NCBI GenBank assembly: GCA_035943935.1
Contig: DASZBR010000006.1
Span: forward strand, 67,633-131,632
Direction of reading: 5' to 3'
Length of the DNA: 64,000 bases
Origin: Gammaproteobacteria bacterium
GTDB taxonomy: Bacteria; Pseudomonadota; Gammaproteobacteria; DASZBR01
Of this stretch, positions 5,865 through 44,410 are shown one piece after another. Below the pieces are notes generated by a model that saw only the letters and a program-made list of their open reading frames with translations, made no database searches and was not told the origin of the DNA. The translations under genes and the position numbers were made by a program. Position 1 is the stretch's first letter. Every line of letters begins with the position of its first letter.

Positions 5865-6360
5865 GCCAATCGACTCGCATTACCTTTTTTATTAAATTAA
5901 TTTCCATAATATATCTGTTAATTATATAGGGTATTAATATTTCTTTTTTATGTTCTTGATTTTTTACAACAACAATATCATTCGCGCCCGTATTAAATAT
6001 ATCTACTATTTTTCCTAGAAATTTTTTTTCAAGATTATAAACATCGAGTCCAATTAAATCTGTCCAATAATATTCATCTTTTTTAAGCGCAGGTAACTGA
6101 GTGCGTTCAATCCAGATCTCTTCATTGGTTGCGGGTTTTTGTTTTTCATCAAATAACGCAATAATTTTTTTGCCTAATAATTTACATTCCACTATGTTGA
6201 GTGGCTTCTTATTTTTATCATACCAAGGGTGATAATTTATTATGTTGGCCGAAGGTTCAGTGAATGAATGGATTGATACAAATCCTTTTATTCCATGCAC
6301 CCGGCCAATTTTGCCAATTAATATCCAGGTATTATTCAGCGGTTTTTCCTGCAGCTTCAT
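5854..6360 (-). CDS. rimM: 16S rRNA processing protein RimM
   Basis: [13 protein letters not shown] motif, PRC-barrel C-terminus. Operon position between rpsP and trmD. Confidence 0.9.
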
Positions 6361-40789: not shown

Positions 40790-41638
40790 GTGAATTTAAA
40801 AAATGTCGATTTGATTGGTTATGCATGTGGTTTGGCAGCAGGAAATCCCGGGTGCGCAGAGGGTCCCGTTCAACTTCAAACGGTGTTTGATCATCTGGAA
40901 TTATTATATCCCGCCCTCACAGAGTCACCCCAAGACAACTATCACCTTATTGCTGAGCTTTCTTTACGATTAGCGCAGCGTATCGAAAAAACACTTCAGC
41001 ACAAAAAGCAATTTATCGTCTTTGCGGGTGATCATTCGTGTGCCATAGGTACATGGAGTGGTGTGGCTCATGCACTTCGTGAAGAAAAAAAAGATTTTGG
41101 TTTGATTTGGATTGATGCACATTTAGATTCACATACACCTGAAACGTCTCCCTCTGGAAATATTCACGGCATGCCGGTTGCCAGTTTATTAGGACACGGA
41201 AATAAATTATTGACCTCTATTTTAAATAATCACCCTAAAATCAAACCTGAAAATATTTGTTTTATCGGCATACGTAGTTTTGAGAGGGGTGAAGAAGACT
41301 TAATCAAAAAATTAAATATTAAAACCTATTATATGCAAGAAGTAGACGAGAGAGGGTTGGATGCTGTGTTTAAAGAAGCCAAAGCAAGAATTACAAAAGA
41401 TACGGAATATTATGGCGTGAGTATCGATCTCGATGGCATTGATCCGGAAGATACGCCCGGTGTAGGAACGGCTGAACCCAATGGCATTAAAGCCGATGAT
41501 CTATGTAAAGCATTAAGGGAATATTGCCAACATGATCCAAAATTATTGGGCGCCGAAATTACGGAATTTAATCCCCATTTAGATATTAATCACAAAACAC
41601 AAGCTGTCATACGTCGTCTCGTTGCTGCGATATATTAG
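40790..41638 (+). CDS. rocF: Arginase-family ureohydrolase (arginase/agmatinase/formiminoglutamase)
   Basis: Mn-binding motifs DAHLDSHTPETSPSGNIHGMPVA and SIDLDGIDP. GTG start with a GGGAGAAGG RBS. Adjacent to rocD, which supports arginase. Confidence 0.7.
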   Translation: MNLKNVDLIGYACGLAAGNPGCAEGPVQLQTVFDHLELLYPALTESPQDNYHLIAELSLRLAQRIEKTLQHKKQFIVFAGDHSCAIGTWSGVAHALREEKKDFGLIWIDAHLDSHTPETSPSGNIHGMPVASLLGHGNKLLTSILNNHPKIKPENICFIGIRSFERGEEDLIKKLNIKTYYMQEVDERGLDAVFKEAKARITKDTEYYGVSIDLDGIDPEDTPGVGTAEPNGIKADDLCKALREYCQHDPKLLGAEITEFNPHLDINHKTQAVIRRLVAAIY

Positions 41639-41656
41639 ATATTATAGGAGAATACG

Positions 41657-42844
41657 ATGAGTCCTGTTGAACTTGAAAACAAATATGGTGCACATAATTA
41701 CCACCCGTTGCCTGTGATGATTACGCGCGCAGAAGGCGTGTATGTATGGGATGAGCACAATAAAAAATACATGGACATGATGAGCGCGTATTCCGCCATC
41801 AGTCATGGACATTGTCATCCCCGATTAGTTGCTGCGTTAACGAAACAAGCCAATACCGTGGCGGTTGTTTCACGTGCTTTCCACAGTGACAAATTAGGGC
41901 CTTTTTTACAGAAAGCCTGTGAATTAACGGGAATGCCTCGTGCATTACCCATGAATAGCGGAGCAGAAGCAGTAGAGACGGCATTGAAAGCAGCGCGTAA
42001 ATGGGCTTATCGTGTTAAAAAAGTTCCTGAAAATAAAGCAGAAATTATTGCGTGTGAAAATAATTTTCATGGTCGGACTATATCTATCGTTTCTATGTCT
42101 ACTGAGGCTCAGTATAAAGACGGCTTTGGACCGTTACTTCCCGGCATTAAAATTATTCCCTTTGGAGATAGTGCTGCGCTCGAGAAAGCAATTACGCCAA
42201 ATACCGCTGCATTTATTGTCGAGCCTATTCAAGGTGAAGCAGGAATTATTGTACCGCCAGCGGGATATTTAAAAGCGTGTGAGGCGATTTGTCGTAAGCA
42301 TAATGTCTTATTAATTACCGATGAAATTCAAACCGGTTTAGGTCGCACCGGTAAATTATTGGCATCACAACATGAAGGCGTAAAGCCAGATTGTATTACG
42401 TTGGGTAAAGCATTGGGTGGTGGATTAATGCCCGTATCTTTATTTTTATCACGAGAGGATGTCATGGATGTCTTTACGCCGGGGGATCATGGAAGTACTT
42501 TTGGGGGTAGTCCGCTCGCTGCAGCCGTGGGACTTGAAGCCTTAAATGTCATCGTTGATGAAAAATTAGTTCAGCATGCCCATGAGATGGGTGAATATTT
42601 TATGGCTGAGCTTAAAAAAATCCACTCACCCTTAATTAAAAATATCAGGGGCAAGGGATTATTGATTGGCATTGAAATTAATCCTGGAAAGAAATCTGCT
42701 CGTGATCTTTGTTTAGAATTATTAAACTTGGGATTATTGAGCAAAGAAACGCATCACACGGTAATAAGATTAGCTCCGCCGTTAATTATTACTAAAGCTC
42801 AAATTGATGAAGCCATTACTATGATTAAGCAGGTCATTAAATAA
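41657..42844 (+). CDS. rocD: Ornithine aminotransferase
   Basis: Class-III aminotransferase. YGAHNYHPLPV and DEIQTGLGRTGK motifs. Confidence 0.85.
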   Translation: MSPVELENKYGAHNYHPLPVMITRAEGVYVWDEHNKKYMDMMSAYSAISHGHCHPRLVAALTKQANTVAVVSRAFHSDKLGPFLQKACELTGMPRALPMNSGAEAVETALKAARKWAYRVKKVPENKAEIIACENNFHGRTISIVSMSTEAQYKDGFGPLLPGIKIIPFGDSAALEKAITPNTAAFIVEPIQGEAGIIVPPAGYLKACEAICRKHNVLLITDEIQTGLGRTGKLLASQHEGVKPDCITLGKALGGGLMPVSLFLSREDVMDVFTPGDHGSTFGGSPLAAAVGLEALNVIVDEKLVQHAHEMGEYFMAELKKIHSPLIKNIRGKGLLIGIEINPGKKSARDLCLELLNLGLLSKETHHTVIRLAPPLIITKAQIDEAITMIKQVIK

Positions 42845-42849
42845 TTAAT

Positions 42850-42993
42850 ATGCCTAAGGGTTTTAGTTTGTTAGAAGTTCTTATTGCTTTGACTATAGTA
42901 TCGATTAGCTTGTTGGGTTTTGCGCAATCAGAATTAGTGGCGTTAAAATTGGAAAAGGATTTGCAGAAAGAACTTCAGAAGTCTGTTGTCTGA
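42850..42993 (+). pseudogene. Truncated minor pilin (PilV-like) fragment, 47 codons
   Basis: MPKGFSLLEVLIALTIVSISLLGFA is a prepilin-type N-terminal cleavage/methylation domain. The frame ends in a TGA that lies at the edge of the palindromic element. Confidence 0.5.
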
Positions 42994-42994
42994 T

Positions 42995-43078
42995 CCCGGA
43001 TTCCGCTGCGCTCCATCCGGGCTACTATTACTTTTAAAAGATCGCCCGTAGCCCGGATGGAGCGCAGCGGAATCCGGG
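42995..43078. repeat. Perfect 31-bp-arm inverted repeat with a 22-nt loop (REP/MITE-like palindromic element)
   Basis: CCCGGATTCCGCTGCGCTCCATCCGGGCTAC at 42995-43025 and its exact reverse complement at 43048-43078. GC-rich relative to its surroundings. Confidence 0.8.
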
Positions 43079-43100
43079 AAATAATAATCATGGGACATTA

Positions 43101-43547
43101 ATGAGACCTAATCAACATGGCTTCTCTTTATTAGAAACGCTCTTCAGCTTAGCCATCAGCCTATTTTTAATCAGCCTGATGGTTAAACTCTATGGTCTGC
43201 AAGAGATTCTCCATTACGACGTACAACAGCTGAGCACTCTCAATCGGCAAGCCATAATTACGCGCCAAATTTTAAGTCATGCAGTAGAAAAAAATCAGGA
43301 AAAATATCTTTATATCAACAAAGATAATTTATACCTAAAAAAACCACATGATATTGCTGTCGAATTGGTATCGGGTGTCAAAAATCTCGTTATGACAAAG
43401 CATCAAGATAAAATCGATATTAAAATCACTGTTTTTATTCGAGGGAATAGTCATGAAACCAAAAGGCTTTATTCTAATAACAGCATTAATCTTCATTTTT
43501 TTGTTAAGCCTCGTTGCACTGTCGACGCTGGAAACGAGTGCGCATGA
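43101..43547 (+). CDS. Prepilin-type minor pilin (PilW/FimU-like), short
   Basis: QHGFSLLETLFSLAISLFLISL N-terminal methylation motif. 148 aa, shorter than typical PilW. Confidence 0.5.
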   Translation: MRPNQHGFSLLETLFSLAISLFLISLMVKLYGLQEILHYDVQQLSTLNRQAIITRQILSHAVEKNQEKYLYINKDNLYLKKPHDIAVELVSGVKNLVMTKHQDKIDIKITVFIRGNSHETKRLYSNNSINLHFFVKPRCTVDAGNECA

Positions 43548-43593
43548 CGCTCGCATTCAAAAGCGCTTTTATGATATCGTACGCACTTCGTGA
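43453..43593 (+). pseudogene. PilX-like minor pilin fragment (46 codons, overlapping frames)
   Basis: MKPKGFILITALIFIFLLSLVAL, a PilX-type N-terminus, in a frame that overlaps both neighbouring ORFs. Confidence 0.3.
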
Positions 43594-43618
43594 GACATGG
43601 AAAAAGGATGCGTGGGCA

Positions 43619-44410
43619 ATGAAACGAGCATTGGGTTTTGTTGGATTAATCAGCGTTGGATTAGTATTAACAGGATGTGATTACAATCGCTCCAAGCCTA
43701 CGTCGCAATTTCCATCAGAACAATCGTTTTATGTTCATGATCAAAGTCTCATGACGAGTGGAACCTACCCGTTAAGTCCTTTTGATAAAGTTGTGATGTC
43801 GGGTCCAGTGACCGCGGCTTTTAAAAACAATCAAGCACAAGATGTTATTCGGGTGAATGGAAATCCTTCTTCGCTGAATGGACTTTCTGTTGTTCAACGA
43901 GGTCGTATTGTTTATGTCAGTGCAACAGCAGGCCACCCTGTAAATATTGATGTTGAATCCCAAGCGGCACAATCACAGATACCACTCAATTTAGTCCTTT
44001 CGGGTAATACGCACACTAAAATGGAAGGCAACTTTTTAATTCAACGAATTGATGCATCGGGCAATGCGAATTTAAAACTGTATTGGTTAAATACCTCGCA
44101 TTTGACCGTTAATGCGAGCGGTAATGCTAAATTATTTTTGGCCGGTGTTGTGACGCATTTGGATGTAACAGCATCAGGCAATTCAGAAGTGAATGGTAAG
44201 TATTTACGCGTAGACGAATCTTACGTTCTGGCAAGGGATAATGCACAAGTCGGTGTCAGTGTGAAGAAAGCACTAGGTTCGCAATCGGTCGGTAACGCGA
44301 GTATTTATTATTATCGTTATCCAGAATTCGCAGGAATTTATCTTGGCGGTTCAGGTAGCGCGCTCAATATGAAGGGTATTTCAGGTCCGTCGAATAACCT
44401 CTTGGACTAA
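43619..44410 (+). CDS. Lipoprotein with DUF2807-like beta-helical repeats
   Basis: Lipobox signal MKRALGFVGLISVGLVLTGC. Repeated ..ASGNA.L.L motifs (DASGNANLKL, NASGNAKLFL, TASGNSEVNG). Confidence 0.55.
   Translation: MKRALGFVGLISVGLVLTGCDYNRSKPTSQFPSEQSFYVHDQSLMTSGTYPLSPFDKVVMSGPVTAAFKNNQAQDVIRVNGNPSSLNGLSVVQRGRIVYVSATAGHPVNIDVESQAAQSQIPLNLVLSGNTHTKMEGNFLIQRIDASGNANLKLYWLNTSHLTVNASGNAKLFLAGVVTHLDVTASGNSEVNGKYLRVDESYVLARDNAQVGVSVKKALGSQSVGNASIYYYRYPEFAGIYLGGSGSALNMKGISGPSNNLLD

Follow-up and report, generated by a model that had tools for sequence, protein, structure and literature searches.

In E. coli operons REPs act as a 3′-end barrier that stabilises part of the transcript, and one study reportedly found that REPs near stop codons cause ribosome stalling. 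The REP-associated tyrosine transposases (RAYTs) are enzymes of the HUH/Y1 type and belong to the IS200/IS605 superfamily. GTAG-headed REPs form both HH and TT dimers, in which the two units lie 20-100 bp apart (Di Nocera 2013). A P. mendocina REP, GTAGCCCGGATGCAATCCGGG (Nunvar 2010), has the same head and stem as the repeat arm analysed here, and Table 1 of that paper gives the C. burnetii Dugway REP as GTAGGTTGGGCTGAGCTTGCGAAGCCCAAC (GTAGGTTGGGC...GCCCAAC). In C. burnetii, IS1111 inserts into a chromosomal stem-loop that occurs more than 50 times and is described as a GTAG REP within QMITE2, the small copies of which have BLAST relatives in Bradyrhizobium. ISPpu9 also targets REPs.

The locus described here is an 86-bp palindrome (42994..43079) that lies between the first two of three small pilin-like genes, in a 64-kb stretch of DNA (the window, ~40% GC) from the MAG of an uncultured gammaproteobacterium. 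An inverted-repeat search revealed two arms of 32 nt each, 100% complementary, around a 22-nt AT-rich spacer (TATTACTTTTAAAAGATCGCCC, 43026..43047) that forms the loop of a long hairpin; none of 100 shuffled controls matched this inverted repeat, which excludes a chance origin of the match. The left arm (GTAGCCCGGATGGAGCGCAGCGGAATCCGGGA, 42994..43025) is a REP unit on the minus strand, and the right arm (43048..43079) is an identical unit on the plus strand. Each consists of GTAG followed by CCCGGAT, 13 nt and ATCCGGG, i.e., a 7-bp stem with a 13-nt loop, and both read GTAG-first on their own strand. The GTAG ends point towards the spacer, and the arrangement is that of a REPIN-like REP doublet, a "TT homodimer", as judged from the inverted-repeat search, the folding and the relatives. 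The element is extragenic: its left arm adjoins the TGA of ORF1 (42991-42993), and its right arm ends 21 nt upstream of the ORF2 start. It has a GC content of 59% (66% in the arms). The original prediction had described perfectly complementary arms around a 22-nt AT-rich loop, a composition GC-rich relative to the genome, and the stop codon of a 47-codon ORF at the element boundary, all of which is confirmed; the sizes it gave, 31 nt per arm and 84 bp in total, omit the outermost base on either side.

The palindrome is, by a wide margin, the longest hairpin of the window. RNA folding of positions 42975-43110 yielded -79.5 kcal/mol (z = -11.1), and no shuffled sequence was equally stable. The calculated energy of the perfect 32-bp stem with its 22-nt loop was -72.3 kcal/mol for RNA and -45.3 for DNA, against -26.0 for two separate small hairpins; a single arm as RNA gave -11.6 to -14.4 kcal/mol. 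No U-tract is present 3′ of the hairpin, where the next sequence is AAATAATAATC, and no terminator-like site was detected on either strand between 42600 and 43800, hence the element does not qualify as an intrinsic (Rho-independent) terminator. A search of Rfam matched it to no family. The flanks (...GTCTGA on the left and AATAATAAT... on the right) contain neither a direct repeat nor a target-site duplication, as would be required of a MITE.

The arm belongs to a widespread repeat type. Its exact 32-mer occurs in at least 120 metagenome contigs, and a degenerate REP core gave at least 120 matches in the genome collection, where those listed come from high-GC genomes, share the loop consensus GGAGCGNAGCGNA, and show the type to be abundant in Bradyrhizobium. 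All other carrier loci of the arm REP among the matches listed have 48-74% GC and belong to the Alpha-, Beta- and Gammaproteobacteria; no relative at ~40% GC was present among the 120 exact-arm metagenome loci listed, and the source genome was not among the degenerate-core matches listed. At five loci (L021, L058, L145, L151 and L181) the REP lies less than 400 bp from ORFs that match NF047646, the model of RAYTs, at 1e-54 to 1e-58, and in L151 and L181 an exact 31-mer of the arm flanks the RAYT genes. The GTAG-inward orientation is a minority arrangement for this REP type, as counted from pairs with 0-1 mismatch only (the REP is near-palindromic and matches its own reverse strand at up to 4 mismatches). 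Other GTAG-inward dimers of the arm REP carry unrelated spacers, and the whole element with its spacer had no exact match in the JGI metagenomes. Within the window there is only this one doublet: no further REP copy or degenerate remnant was found even when 13 mismatches were allowed, and no RAYT-like ORF was detected. The proposal of a MITE/REP-like mobile repeat family therefore stands for its REP part, given the at least 120 contigs and the RAYT-flanking copies, but not for its MITE part, given that direct repeats are missing. The palindrome is an unexceptional representative of a repeat class that is already known.

We compared syntenic relatives. The element is absent at the orthologous site in three of them (L123, L124 and L246), including the closest relative, L124, whose ORF2 is about 81% identical. 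Its interpretation as an insertion is thereby upheld, and such presence/absence at orthologous sites is the pattern by which REPIN mobility is recognized. The gap between ORF1 and ORF2 was 10-18 nt before the insertion and is 107 nt with the element. Both junctions are supported independently of the MAG assembly by Logan contigs from four sequencing runs, in which either ORF1 continues for 30 nt into the left arm or ORF2 is preceded by 29-30 nt of the right arm. The 86-bp unit was inserted, without target duplication, in the lineage leading to the source MAG. Removal of the element in silico gives an empty site that reads ...CAGAAGTCTGTTGTCTGAAATAATAATCATGGG....

Other REP sequence types recur around the operon in relatives. 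In the closest ones, such types (GTAGGGGCG...) occupy neighbouring sites.

The gene upstream of the trio is, as had been noted, a rocD-like ornithine aminotransferase gene (41657..42844, plus strand), itself preceded by arginase (40790-41638), and this arginase-rocD synteny with the pilin-like trio is conserved. The three plus-strand ORFs are present as described, including ORF3 in an overlapping frame. ORF1 (42850..42993; HEV2613759.1) encodes a 47-aa prepilin-like mini-protein with the leader MPKG followed by FSLLE..., and is essentially an N-terminal helix alone. It matched N_methyl with 31.5 bits (1.2e-7; cut-off 21.2) and, over its N-terminus only, the PilV model TIGR02523 with 29.8 bits (cut-off 52.2). 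The product of ORF2 (43101..43547), a pilin-like protein of 148 aa, carries an N_methyl motif (23.8 bits, 3.1e-5; cut-off 21.2). This protein has full length for its family, which is very small (13 proteins among 1.84 billion representatives) and whose members mostly have 145-160 aa. Its AF2 model shows a helix at residues 10-63 and a small beta-sheet, and its last ~30 aa form an extension that overlaps ORF3. The label PilW does not fit ORF2: none of 14 ORF2-family members matched the PilW model, and the weak matches were to ComGF, PpdB-like and ComGE. When the ORF2 model was compared with PDB structures by Foldseek, nothing significant was found, and a PDB profile search returned sub-threshold N-terminal pilin matches only. 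ORF3 (43453..43593), which was not annotated by NCBI, encodes a 46-aa PilX_N/ComGG-like mini-protein (PilX_N, 7.9e-5, 23.0 bits, below the cut-off of 25.5). Its 95-nt overlap with ORF2 (43453..43547, plus strand) belongs to the best-conserved DNA at this locus. Thus, ORF1 and ORF2 show the type IV pilin-like signature (G|F-x-x-x-E plus a hydrophobic helix) above the N_methyl cut-off, and none of the three ORFs matched a full-length PilV, PilW or PilX family model at cut-off.

Downstream of the trio lies the gene for a DUF2807 lipoprotein, with a signal peptide ending in LTGC (43619..44410, plus strand), as it does in four relatives; in deeper relatives the downstream gene encodes a low-complexity protein of 1,545 aa in which no pilus domain is present. 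The locus has no pilY1, pilE or fimU operon context, and no pilus machinery was found near the trio. The source MAG encodes a DotM homologue and is Dot/Icm-bearing. Source proteins sit in single-member or two-member clusters.

In the relatives that cover the trio, ORF1 has 41-51, ORF2 145-156 and ORF3 46-53 aa. The ORF1 equivalents measure 45 aa in L123, 51 aa in L249 and L250, and 50 aa in L247; ORF1 of L124 has the same C-terminal end, and in L246 about 42 aa form the ORF1 part of a fusion. ORF1 gave a pN of 0.18-0.30 against a saturated pS of 0.78-0.92, and dN/dS was 0.15-0.37 for the ORF2 body and 0.06-0.5 for ORF3. ORF3 keeps a length of 46-53 aa in five lineages, and within the ORF2 overlap it is the ORF3 frame that is selected. 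Extension of the DUF2807 gene upstream was considered as a cause of the conservation past the ORF2 stop, and was rejected, the frame being closed in L123. As judged from these sequence comparisons, the trio consists of conserved, lineage-restricted, reduced pilin-like genes under purifying selection, and not of pseudogenes.

These results bear directly on the idea that the element truncated pilV within a decaying operon. The stop codon of ORF1 is not part of the element, removal of the 86 bp leaves the same end codon, and ORF1 is equally short in relatives without the element; hence, the insertion truncated nothing. Decay is contradicted by a pN far below pS in ORF1, by the corresponding values in the ORF2 body and ORF3, and by the length of ORF2, since 148 aa is normal for the family. 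Alignment with relatives, by which frameshifts might have been mapped, instead gave the same ORF lengths and stop positions in up to five lineages. What survives is the notion of a reduced cluster: the ORF3 equivalent of deeper relatives has 111 aa vs 46 aa here, and the ORF1 equivalent of L248 also has 111 aa. The link of this reduction to the palindrome is lost, because the shrinkage of ORF3 from 111 to 46 aa is old: it took place before the insertion and has nothing to do with it.

We conclude, with a probability of roughly 0.85, that the palindrome is two identical inverted GTAG-headed REPs of a RAYT-cognate repeat type, inserted between intact small pilin-like genes. The competing view of an IS-derived MITE that truncated a full-length pilV and left behind a decaying pilV-W-X operon draws on arms that would, on form alone, pass for terminal inverted repeats and on the 111-aa versions of ORF3 and, in L248, of ORF1 in deeper relatives. 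We consider it very improbable, since flanking direct repeats are missing, the arms are RAYT-flanking REPs and not IS ends, the ORF1 stop is outside the element, and ORF2 has the full length of its family, in a trio that bears the signature of purifying selection throughout; the empty sites, next to which ORF1 has 45-51 aa, refute the truncation itself. A locally evolved regulatory hairpin (a rocD-ORF1 terminator or attenuator) or a chance local inverted duplication would agree with a very stable hairpin placed directly after a stop codon and present once in 64 kb. It would not agree with the absence of the hairpin from three syntenic relatives, nor with the lack of a T-run. Moreover, the arm is base-for-base the REP of at least 120 unrelated contigs, also next to RAYT genes, and independent local evolution therefore cannot account for the palindrome; very little credence is left for such an origin.

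That the element serves mainly as a docking site for an IS of the IS110/IS1111 family, like the GTAG REP of C. burnetii QMITE2, is improbable. The literature offers a precedent in the targeting of REPs by IS1111 and ISPpu9, and the arm REP type is abundant in Bradyrhizobium, where small QMITE2 copies have their BLAST relatives. However, the host is not C. burnetii, the stem of the C. burnetii REP is another one, the site is unoccupied, and no IS110-family domain is present among the Pfam matches listed for the window. The C. burnetii/IS1111 setting in which the palindrome had originally been placed was abandoned on these grounds. An assembly or binning artefact, i.e., a chimeric join with high-GC DNA, might be suspected from the fact that the arm occurs elsewhere only in high-GC contigs, among the matches listed. 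On a single contig the element has a syntenic gene on either side, and both junctions recur in independent assemblies from four runs, which makes such a join extremely improbable.

For the REP doublet, we propose that a RAYT acting in trans may have inserted the 86-bp unit as single-stranded DNA. In this group, REP/RAYT systems are regarded as passing almost strictly by vertical inheritance. The arms are identical, their REP is otherwise one of high-GC carriers among the matches listed, the doublet is the sole copy in 64 kb at ~40% GC, and the relatives have other REP types; because of this, a recent cross-lineage arrival can be entertained, in which a REP/RAYT system, or even a naked REPIN, came in horizontally by replacement or invasion, although we regard it as unlikely. 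The element destroyed no coding sequence, and any effect would probably be exerted at the RNA level, by a hairpin of -72 to -80 kcal/mol between ORF1 and ORF2. The 107-nt gap should uncouple the translation of ORF1 and ORF2, and the hairpin could, by analogy with REPs in E. coli operons, act at the 3′ end as a barrier through which the rocD-ORF1 portion of the transcript becomes more stable than ORF2-ORF3.

A newly sampled lineage has yielded a textbook REP doublet, whose main consequence is to correct the annotation hypothesis of a broken pilus operon. The conservation of one REP type to the base, loop included, in distant Proteobacteria and over a 30-point GC range suggests a strong constraint by the cognate RAYT. 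Different REP types have independently hit the rocD/pilin-trio neighbourhood in sister lineages, which thus provide naturally filled and naturally empty sites at which REP insertion and its effect on operon expression can be studied. The trio itself, in which two helix-only proteins of about 43 mature residues surround a pilin-like protein of 150 aa next to arginase-rocD, is an uncharacterised and very rare gene set in Dot/Icm-bearing bacteria that may repay study.

As in the minor-pilin sets ComGE/ComGF/ComGG, PpdA/PpdB/YgdB/PpdC (E. coli) and PilV/PilW/PilX, three consecutive genes with prepilin-type N-termini are found at this locus, with G|F-x-L-L-E in ORF1 and ORF2, a PilX/ComGG-type G|F-I-L-I-T in ORF3, and a pilin-like helix plus sheet predicted for ORF2. 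Unlike those sets, the trio remains below every family cut-off, and ORF1 and ORF3 are helix-only proteins of 46-47 aa. C. burnetii QMITE2 (Wachter 2018; Denison 2007) shares with the element a GTAG REP, an 80-100-nt hairpin, a location usually at gene 3′ ends and a Dot/Icm host. Compared by description, the element differs from QMITE2 in having no 7-11-nt direct repeats, no 150-190-bp full-length form and, among the Pfam matches listed, no IS1111 nearby, and in sequence it is not identical to the C. burnetii REP of Nunvar Table 1, the stems being different.

The REPINs (Bertels & Rainey 2011) are closer: they too are two inverted REPs with a spacer, are predicted to form one long hairpin, and are present or absent among relatives. 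They are mobilised by single-copy RAYTs, and the REP of the 86-bp element flanks RAYT genes in other genomes. A copy population and a RAYT are expected of REPINs, whereas the window has one doublet and no RAYT-like ORF, and P. fluorescens REPINs have other REP sequences. In comparison with the GTAG-3 REPs (Di Nocera 2013), the host is a Dot/Icm-bearing one of ~40% GC where the other carriers listed have 48-74% GC, and there is one doublet in 64 kb, in the less common TT homodimer form and with perfectly identical arms. With these REPs and those of Nunvar 2010, the element shares the 5′ GTAG, the (C/G)CCGGAT...ATCCGG(G/C) stem and the loop motif GAGCGNAGCG, where enterobacterial REPs have ...AGCGNAGCG... 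loops. Like the GTAG-3 REPs, it is extragenic, with a stop codon just 5′ of it, and is a dimer of inverted units about 20 nt apart.

The palindrome between the first two pilin-like genes consists of two 32-nt arms (left, 42994-43025; right, 43048-43079) that are 100% complementary to each other and are separated by a 22-nt AT-rich spacer. The inverted repeat of the original prediction exists, but its coordinates left each outer end 1 base short. RNA folding of the 42975-43110 region yielded -79.5 kcal/mol (z = -11.1), by far the strongest hairpin of the whole window. As a single long hairpin the 86-bp unit (42994-43079) reaches -72.3 kcal/mol as RNA and -45.3 as DNA, versus -26.0 kcal/mol for two separate small hairpins (RNA comparison). 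No U-tract follows the hairpin, which rules out a classic terminator. In the 64-kb window no further copy of the arm was detected at up to 3 mismatches, and the arm sequence did not occur in 100 shuffles. Degenerate remnants of the repeat were likewise absent from the window, the next-best match having 13 mismatches in 32 positions, the level of shuffled sequence.

Read on its own strand, each arm is GTAG-CCCGGAT-GGAGCGCAGCGGA-ATCCGGG-A. With GTAG at its terminus and then a 7-bp stem enclosing a 13-nt loop, it is built like a repetitive extragenic palindrome (REP). The Pseudomonas mendocina REP GTAGCCCGGATGCAATCCGGG shares its head and stem with the arm, and enterobacterial REPs with ...AGCGNAGCG... 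loops appear in the same table (Nunvar et al. 2010, Table 1, PMC2817692); elements of this kind are classed as GTAG-3 (Di Nocera et al. 2013, PMC3733652). When one genome per species was scanned for the pattern GTAGCCCGGATN13ATCCGGG, at least 120 matches were obtained, those listed being mostly from Bradyrhizobium and Xanthobacteraceae, and also from beta- and gammaproteobacterial MAGs; the loop was conserved as GGAGCGNAGCGNA across them. In five fetched loci the REP, the exact 31-mer included, lies <400 bp from ORFs resembling REP-associated tyrosine transposases (RAYTs; 1e-54 to 1e-58 against NCBIfam NF047646), and in locus L181 the RAYT-like gene is bracketed by two REP copies in inverted orientation. 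The window itself yielded no RAYT gene. Given the REP anatomy, the matches to published REPs, the recurrence of the exact 32-mer in at least 120 metagenome contigs and the RAYT-adjacent copies, the arm is a genuine RAYT-cognate REP, and of the original interpretation, which holds up only in part, the REP-like repeat family is supported. Two such REPs and the spacer make up the 86-bp doublet, whose predicted fold is a single long hairpin; this is the structure by which REPINs are defined (Bertels & Rainey 2011, PMC3116915). Over Alpha-, Beta- and Gammaproteobacteria (48-74% GC; L001-L244) the sequence GTAGCCCGGAT-GGAGCGNAGCGNA-ATCCGGG is near base-identical. Because even the unpaired loop is conserved almost to the base, this implies a sequence-specific constraint on the loop, presumably recognition by the RAYT.

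A search of a 5.8-billion-protein collection found only four relatives of the ORF2 protein, and their contigs provided syntenic loci. In L123 (ORF2 ~54-60% identical) the order is arginase-rocD-ORF1-ORF2-ORF3-DUF2807, and the ORF1-ORF2 gap is 18 nt, without the element; in L124 (ORF2 ~81% identical) it is ~10 nt, also without the element, which is missing from L246 as well. The doublet is thus an insertion relative to these syntenic relatives. The window flanks (...GTCTGA | AATAATAAT...) reveal no target duplication. An assembly artefact was ruled out, since the junctions are present in Logan contigs from four runs (SRR12377062, -63, -66 and -72): some continue from ORF1 for 30 nt into the left arm, others hold ORF2 preceded by 29-30 nt of the right arm. 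These contigs end inside the arms because a k=31 assembler must break at a 32-nt inverted repeat. As these breaks are systematic, 29-30 nt into a perfect 32-nt inverted repeat (ends of L121/L122 and L251-L254), contig ends in the Logan collection can flag long palindromes but are no evidence of multi-copy repeats.

The palindrome had been proposed to truncate pilV within a decaying pilV-W-X operon. The genes concerned are ORF1 (42850-42993, 47 codons) and ORF2 (43101-43547, 148 codons), both with a prepilin N-terminal methylation motif, and ORF3 (43453-43593, 46 codons), with a PilX_N match just under the cut-off; arginase and ornithine aminotransferase genes lie upstream and a DUF2807 lipoprotein gene downstream. 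The TGA of ORF1 abuts the left arm, but in silico removal of the 86 bp leaves the same TGA in place. Furthermore, short ORF1 equivalents (47 aa in the window) occur in relatives that lack the element: 45 aa in L123, the same C-terminal end in L124 (whose contig cuts the 5′ end), and ~42 aa in L246, where ORF1 is fused to the front of ORF2; they measure 50 aa in L247 and 51 aa in L249 and L250. Among 1.84 billion representatives, a profile search retrieved just 13 members of the ORF2 family, and since most have 145-160 aa, ORF2 at 148 aa is full length. In four lineages ORF3 has 46 aa and ends at the same stop; a fifth lineage has 53 aa. By Nei-Gojobori counts, ORF1 shows pN 0.18-0.30 against a saturated pS of 0.78-0.92, and the ORF2 body a dN/dS of 0.15-0.37. 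ORF2 and ORF3 overlap by 95 nt in different frames; there dN/dS is 0.06-0.5 in the ORF3 frame versus 0.8-3 in the ORF2 frame, which identifies ORF3 as the selected frame. Purifying selection acts across the trio, and with ORF lengths and stops kept across the lineages compared, decay does not describe it: the three genes are intact and conserved, and form an unusual set in themselves.

What degeneracy there is has no connection with the palindrome. The trio is reduced in the window's clade (ORF3 from 111 to 46 aa), and because this state is common to at least five lineages with saturated synonymous sites, the reduction is old, stable and selected. Deeper relatives (L249, 916-6578; L250; and a 556-kb JGI 3300050046 contig) keep the arginase-rocD linkage and a trio of 51-145-111 aa; after it comes a K/N/S-rich low-complexity protein of 1,545 aa, possibly effector-like, without Pfam or pilus domain. 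In L248 (5661-6471) a 111-aa ORF1 equivalent is paired with a 156-aa protein, and the pair adjoins relA/spoT and fabH, not arginase-rocD.

The PilW label also failed, as the PilW model matched 0 of 14 ORF2-family members; weak matches, far under cut-offs, were obtained to ComGF (12/14) and to PpdB-like and ComGE models (10/14). In its AF2 model (mean pLDDT 69), ORF2 combines a helix at residues 10-63 with a sheet of five strands, in pilin fashion, and Foldseek found nothing significant in the PDB. The last ~30 residues (pLDDT <50) are an extension absent from distant family members; with two conserved Cys and the same stop in five lineages, this tail looks like an overprinted extension. In L123 (7035-7505) and L245 (48-515) ORF2 begins M-T-L-L-E and lacks both a leader peptide and a Gly at -1, mimicking a pilin N-terminus after processing. 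In L246 (6001-6666) a single frame fuses ORF1 and ORF2 and contains a second, internal G|F-T-L-L-E site. Compared with L123, L124, L245 and L246, window positions 43440-43600 (ORF2 tail/ORF3) show the highest DNA conservation in the locus, and substitutions there track the ORF3 frame. Past the ORF2 stop, ORF3 synonymous sites show pS 0-0.24 versus 0.65-0.9 elsewhere, which points to some extra constraint; a third reading frame was rejected as its source, being closed in L123. ORF3 is absent from the NCBI annotation and its exact sequence from a 15-billion-protein collection. Conserved and under purifying selection yet unannotated, it is likely a missed small gene.

The REP identity of the arms, the doublet hairpin, its insertion relative to relatives and the intact coding sequences are the observed basis for the following scheme. 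A RAYT recognizing GTAG and hairpin would have copied the unit in single-stranded form, with no target duplication. This step draws on what Ton-Hoang and colleagues reportedly found with E. coli TnpA-REP. It also draws on REP/RAYT knowledge (Nunvar et al. 2010, PMC2817692; Bertels & Rainey 2011, PMC3116915). The ORF1-ORF2 gap is 107 nt in the window versus 10-18 nt in relatives, and 86 nt of it form the 32-bp stem unit, beginning one base past the ORF1 stop. Such an enlarged, hairpin-filled gap should abolish ORF1/ORF2 translational coupling. REPs <~15 nt from a stop codon are said, in 2015 work by Liang and Deutscher, to stall ribosomes and trigger tmRNA tagging; if this applies here, lower ORF1 output is predicted. 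The hairpin may also block 3′-exonuclease, favouring the rocD-ORF1 portion of the mRNA. The malE-malF REP is the classic case of such a barrier. Decay of structured REP-containing mRNAs requires RNase R and PNPase (PMC12320835).

REPs have landed repeatedly around rocD and the trio. Intergenic sites close by in the sister lineages L245 and L246 hold another REP type (GTAGGGGCG...). In L245, GTAGGGGCGTGATTCATCACGCCC (1-30) lies in the ORF1/ORF2 gap, where the contig breaks, and a second copy at ~6046 (-) makes two in 10.5 kb; in L246, GTAGGGGCGAGACATTGTCTCGCCC (6041-6065) lies between rocD and ORF1 and is read in-frame as the "leader" of called protein P0010. In L247 the repeat found upstream (~595-700) is CGTC-tagged. 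The window has ~40% GC, and the other carriers of its REP, among the matches listed, have 48-74% GC throughout. This, together with the different REP type of the sister lineages, keeps alive a horizontal arrival of the doublet, which we consider improbable.

The original prediction had also raised a role as an IS1111 target, by analogy with C. burnetii. The locus proteins are deposited as HEV2613757-60 under a gammaproteobacterial MAG. The window encodes a DotM homologue (PF23127, 4e-61), which points to a Dot/Icm-bearing, Legionellales-type host other than C. burnetii; an MbnB/TglH/ChrH-family RiPP-modification enzyme, AbiEii and ParE toxins and housekeeping genes are also present. The premise of targeted stem-loop repeats is backed by the literature: IS1111 inserts into a chromosomal stem-loop with >50 copies (Denison 2007, PMC2104537), described as a GTAG REP lying within QMITE2, and BLAST links the small form of QMITE2 to relatives in Bradyrhizobium (Wachter 2018, PMC5896051). 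Its application here is opposed by three points: the C. burnetii REP GTAGGTTGGGCTGAGCTTGCGAAGCCCAAC has a stem unlike that of the window REP (Nunvar 2010, PMC2817692), no IS110-family gene was among the matches listed for the window, and the REP site is unoccupied by an IS. Any REP might serve as an IS target, and the window offers no sign that this one does.

REP dimers 20-100 bp apart are termed HH when GTAG points outward and TT when it points inward (Di Nocera et al. 2013, PMC3733652), and in these terms the doublet is a TT homodimer. Elsewhere, among the matches listed, dimers of the same REP mostly have GTAG outward and a distance of 21-28 nt. Perfect homodimers with GTAG inward and an AT-rich spacer of ~20 nt also occur, e.g., in locus L192, but their spacer sequences are unrelated to that of the window element. 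The element thus belongs to a known class of repeats, of which it is an ordinary example in a newly seen lineage.
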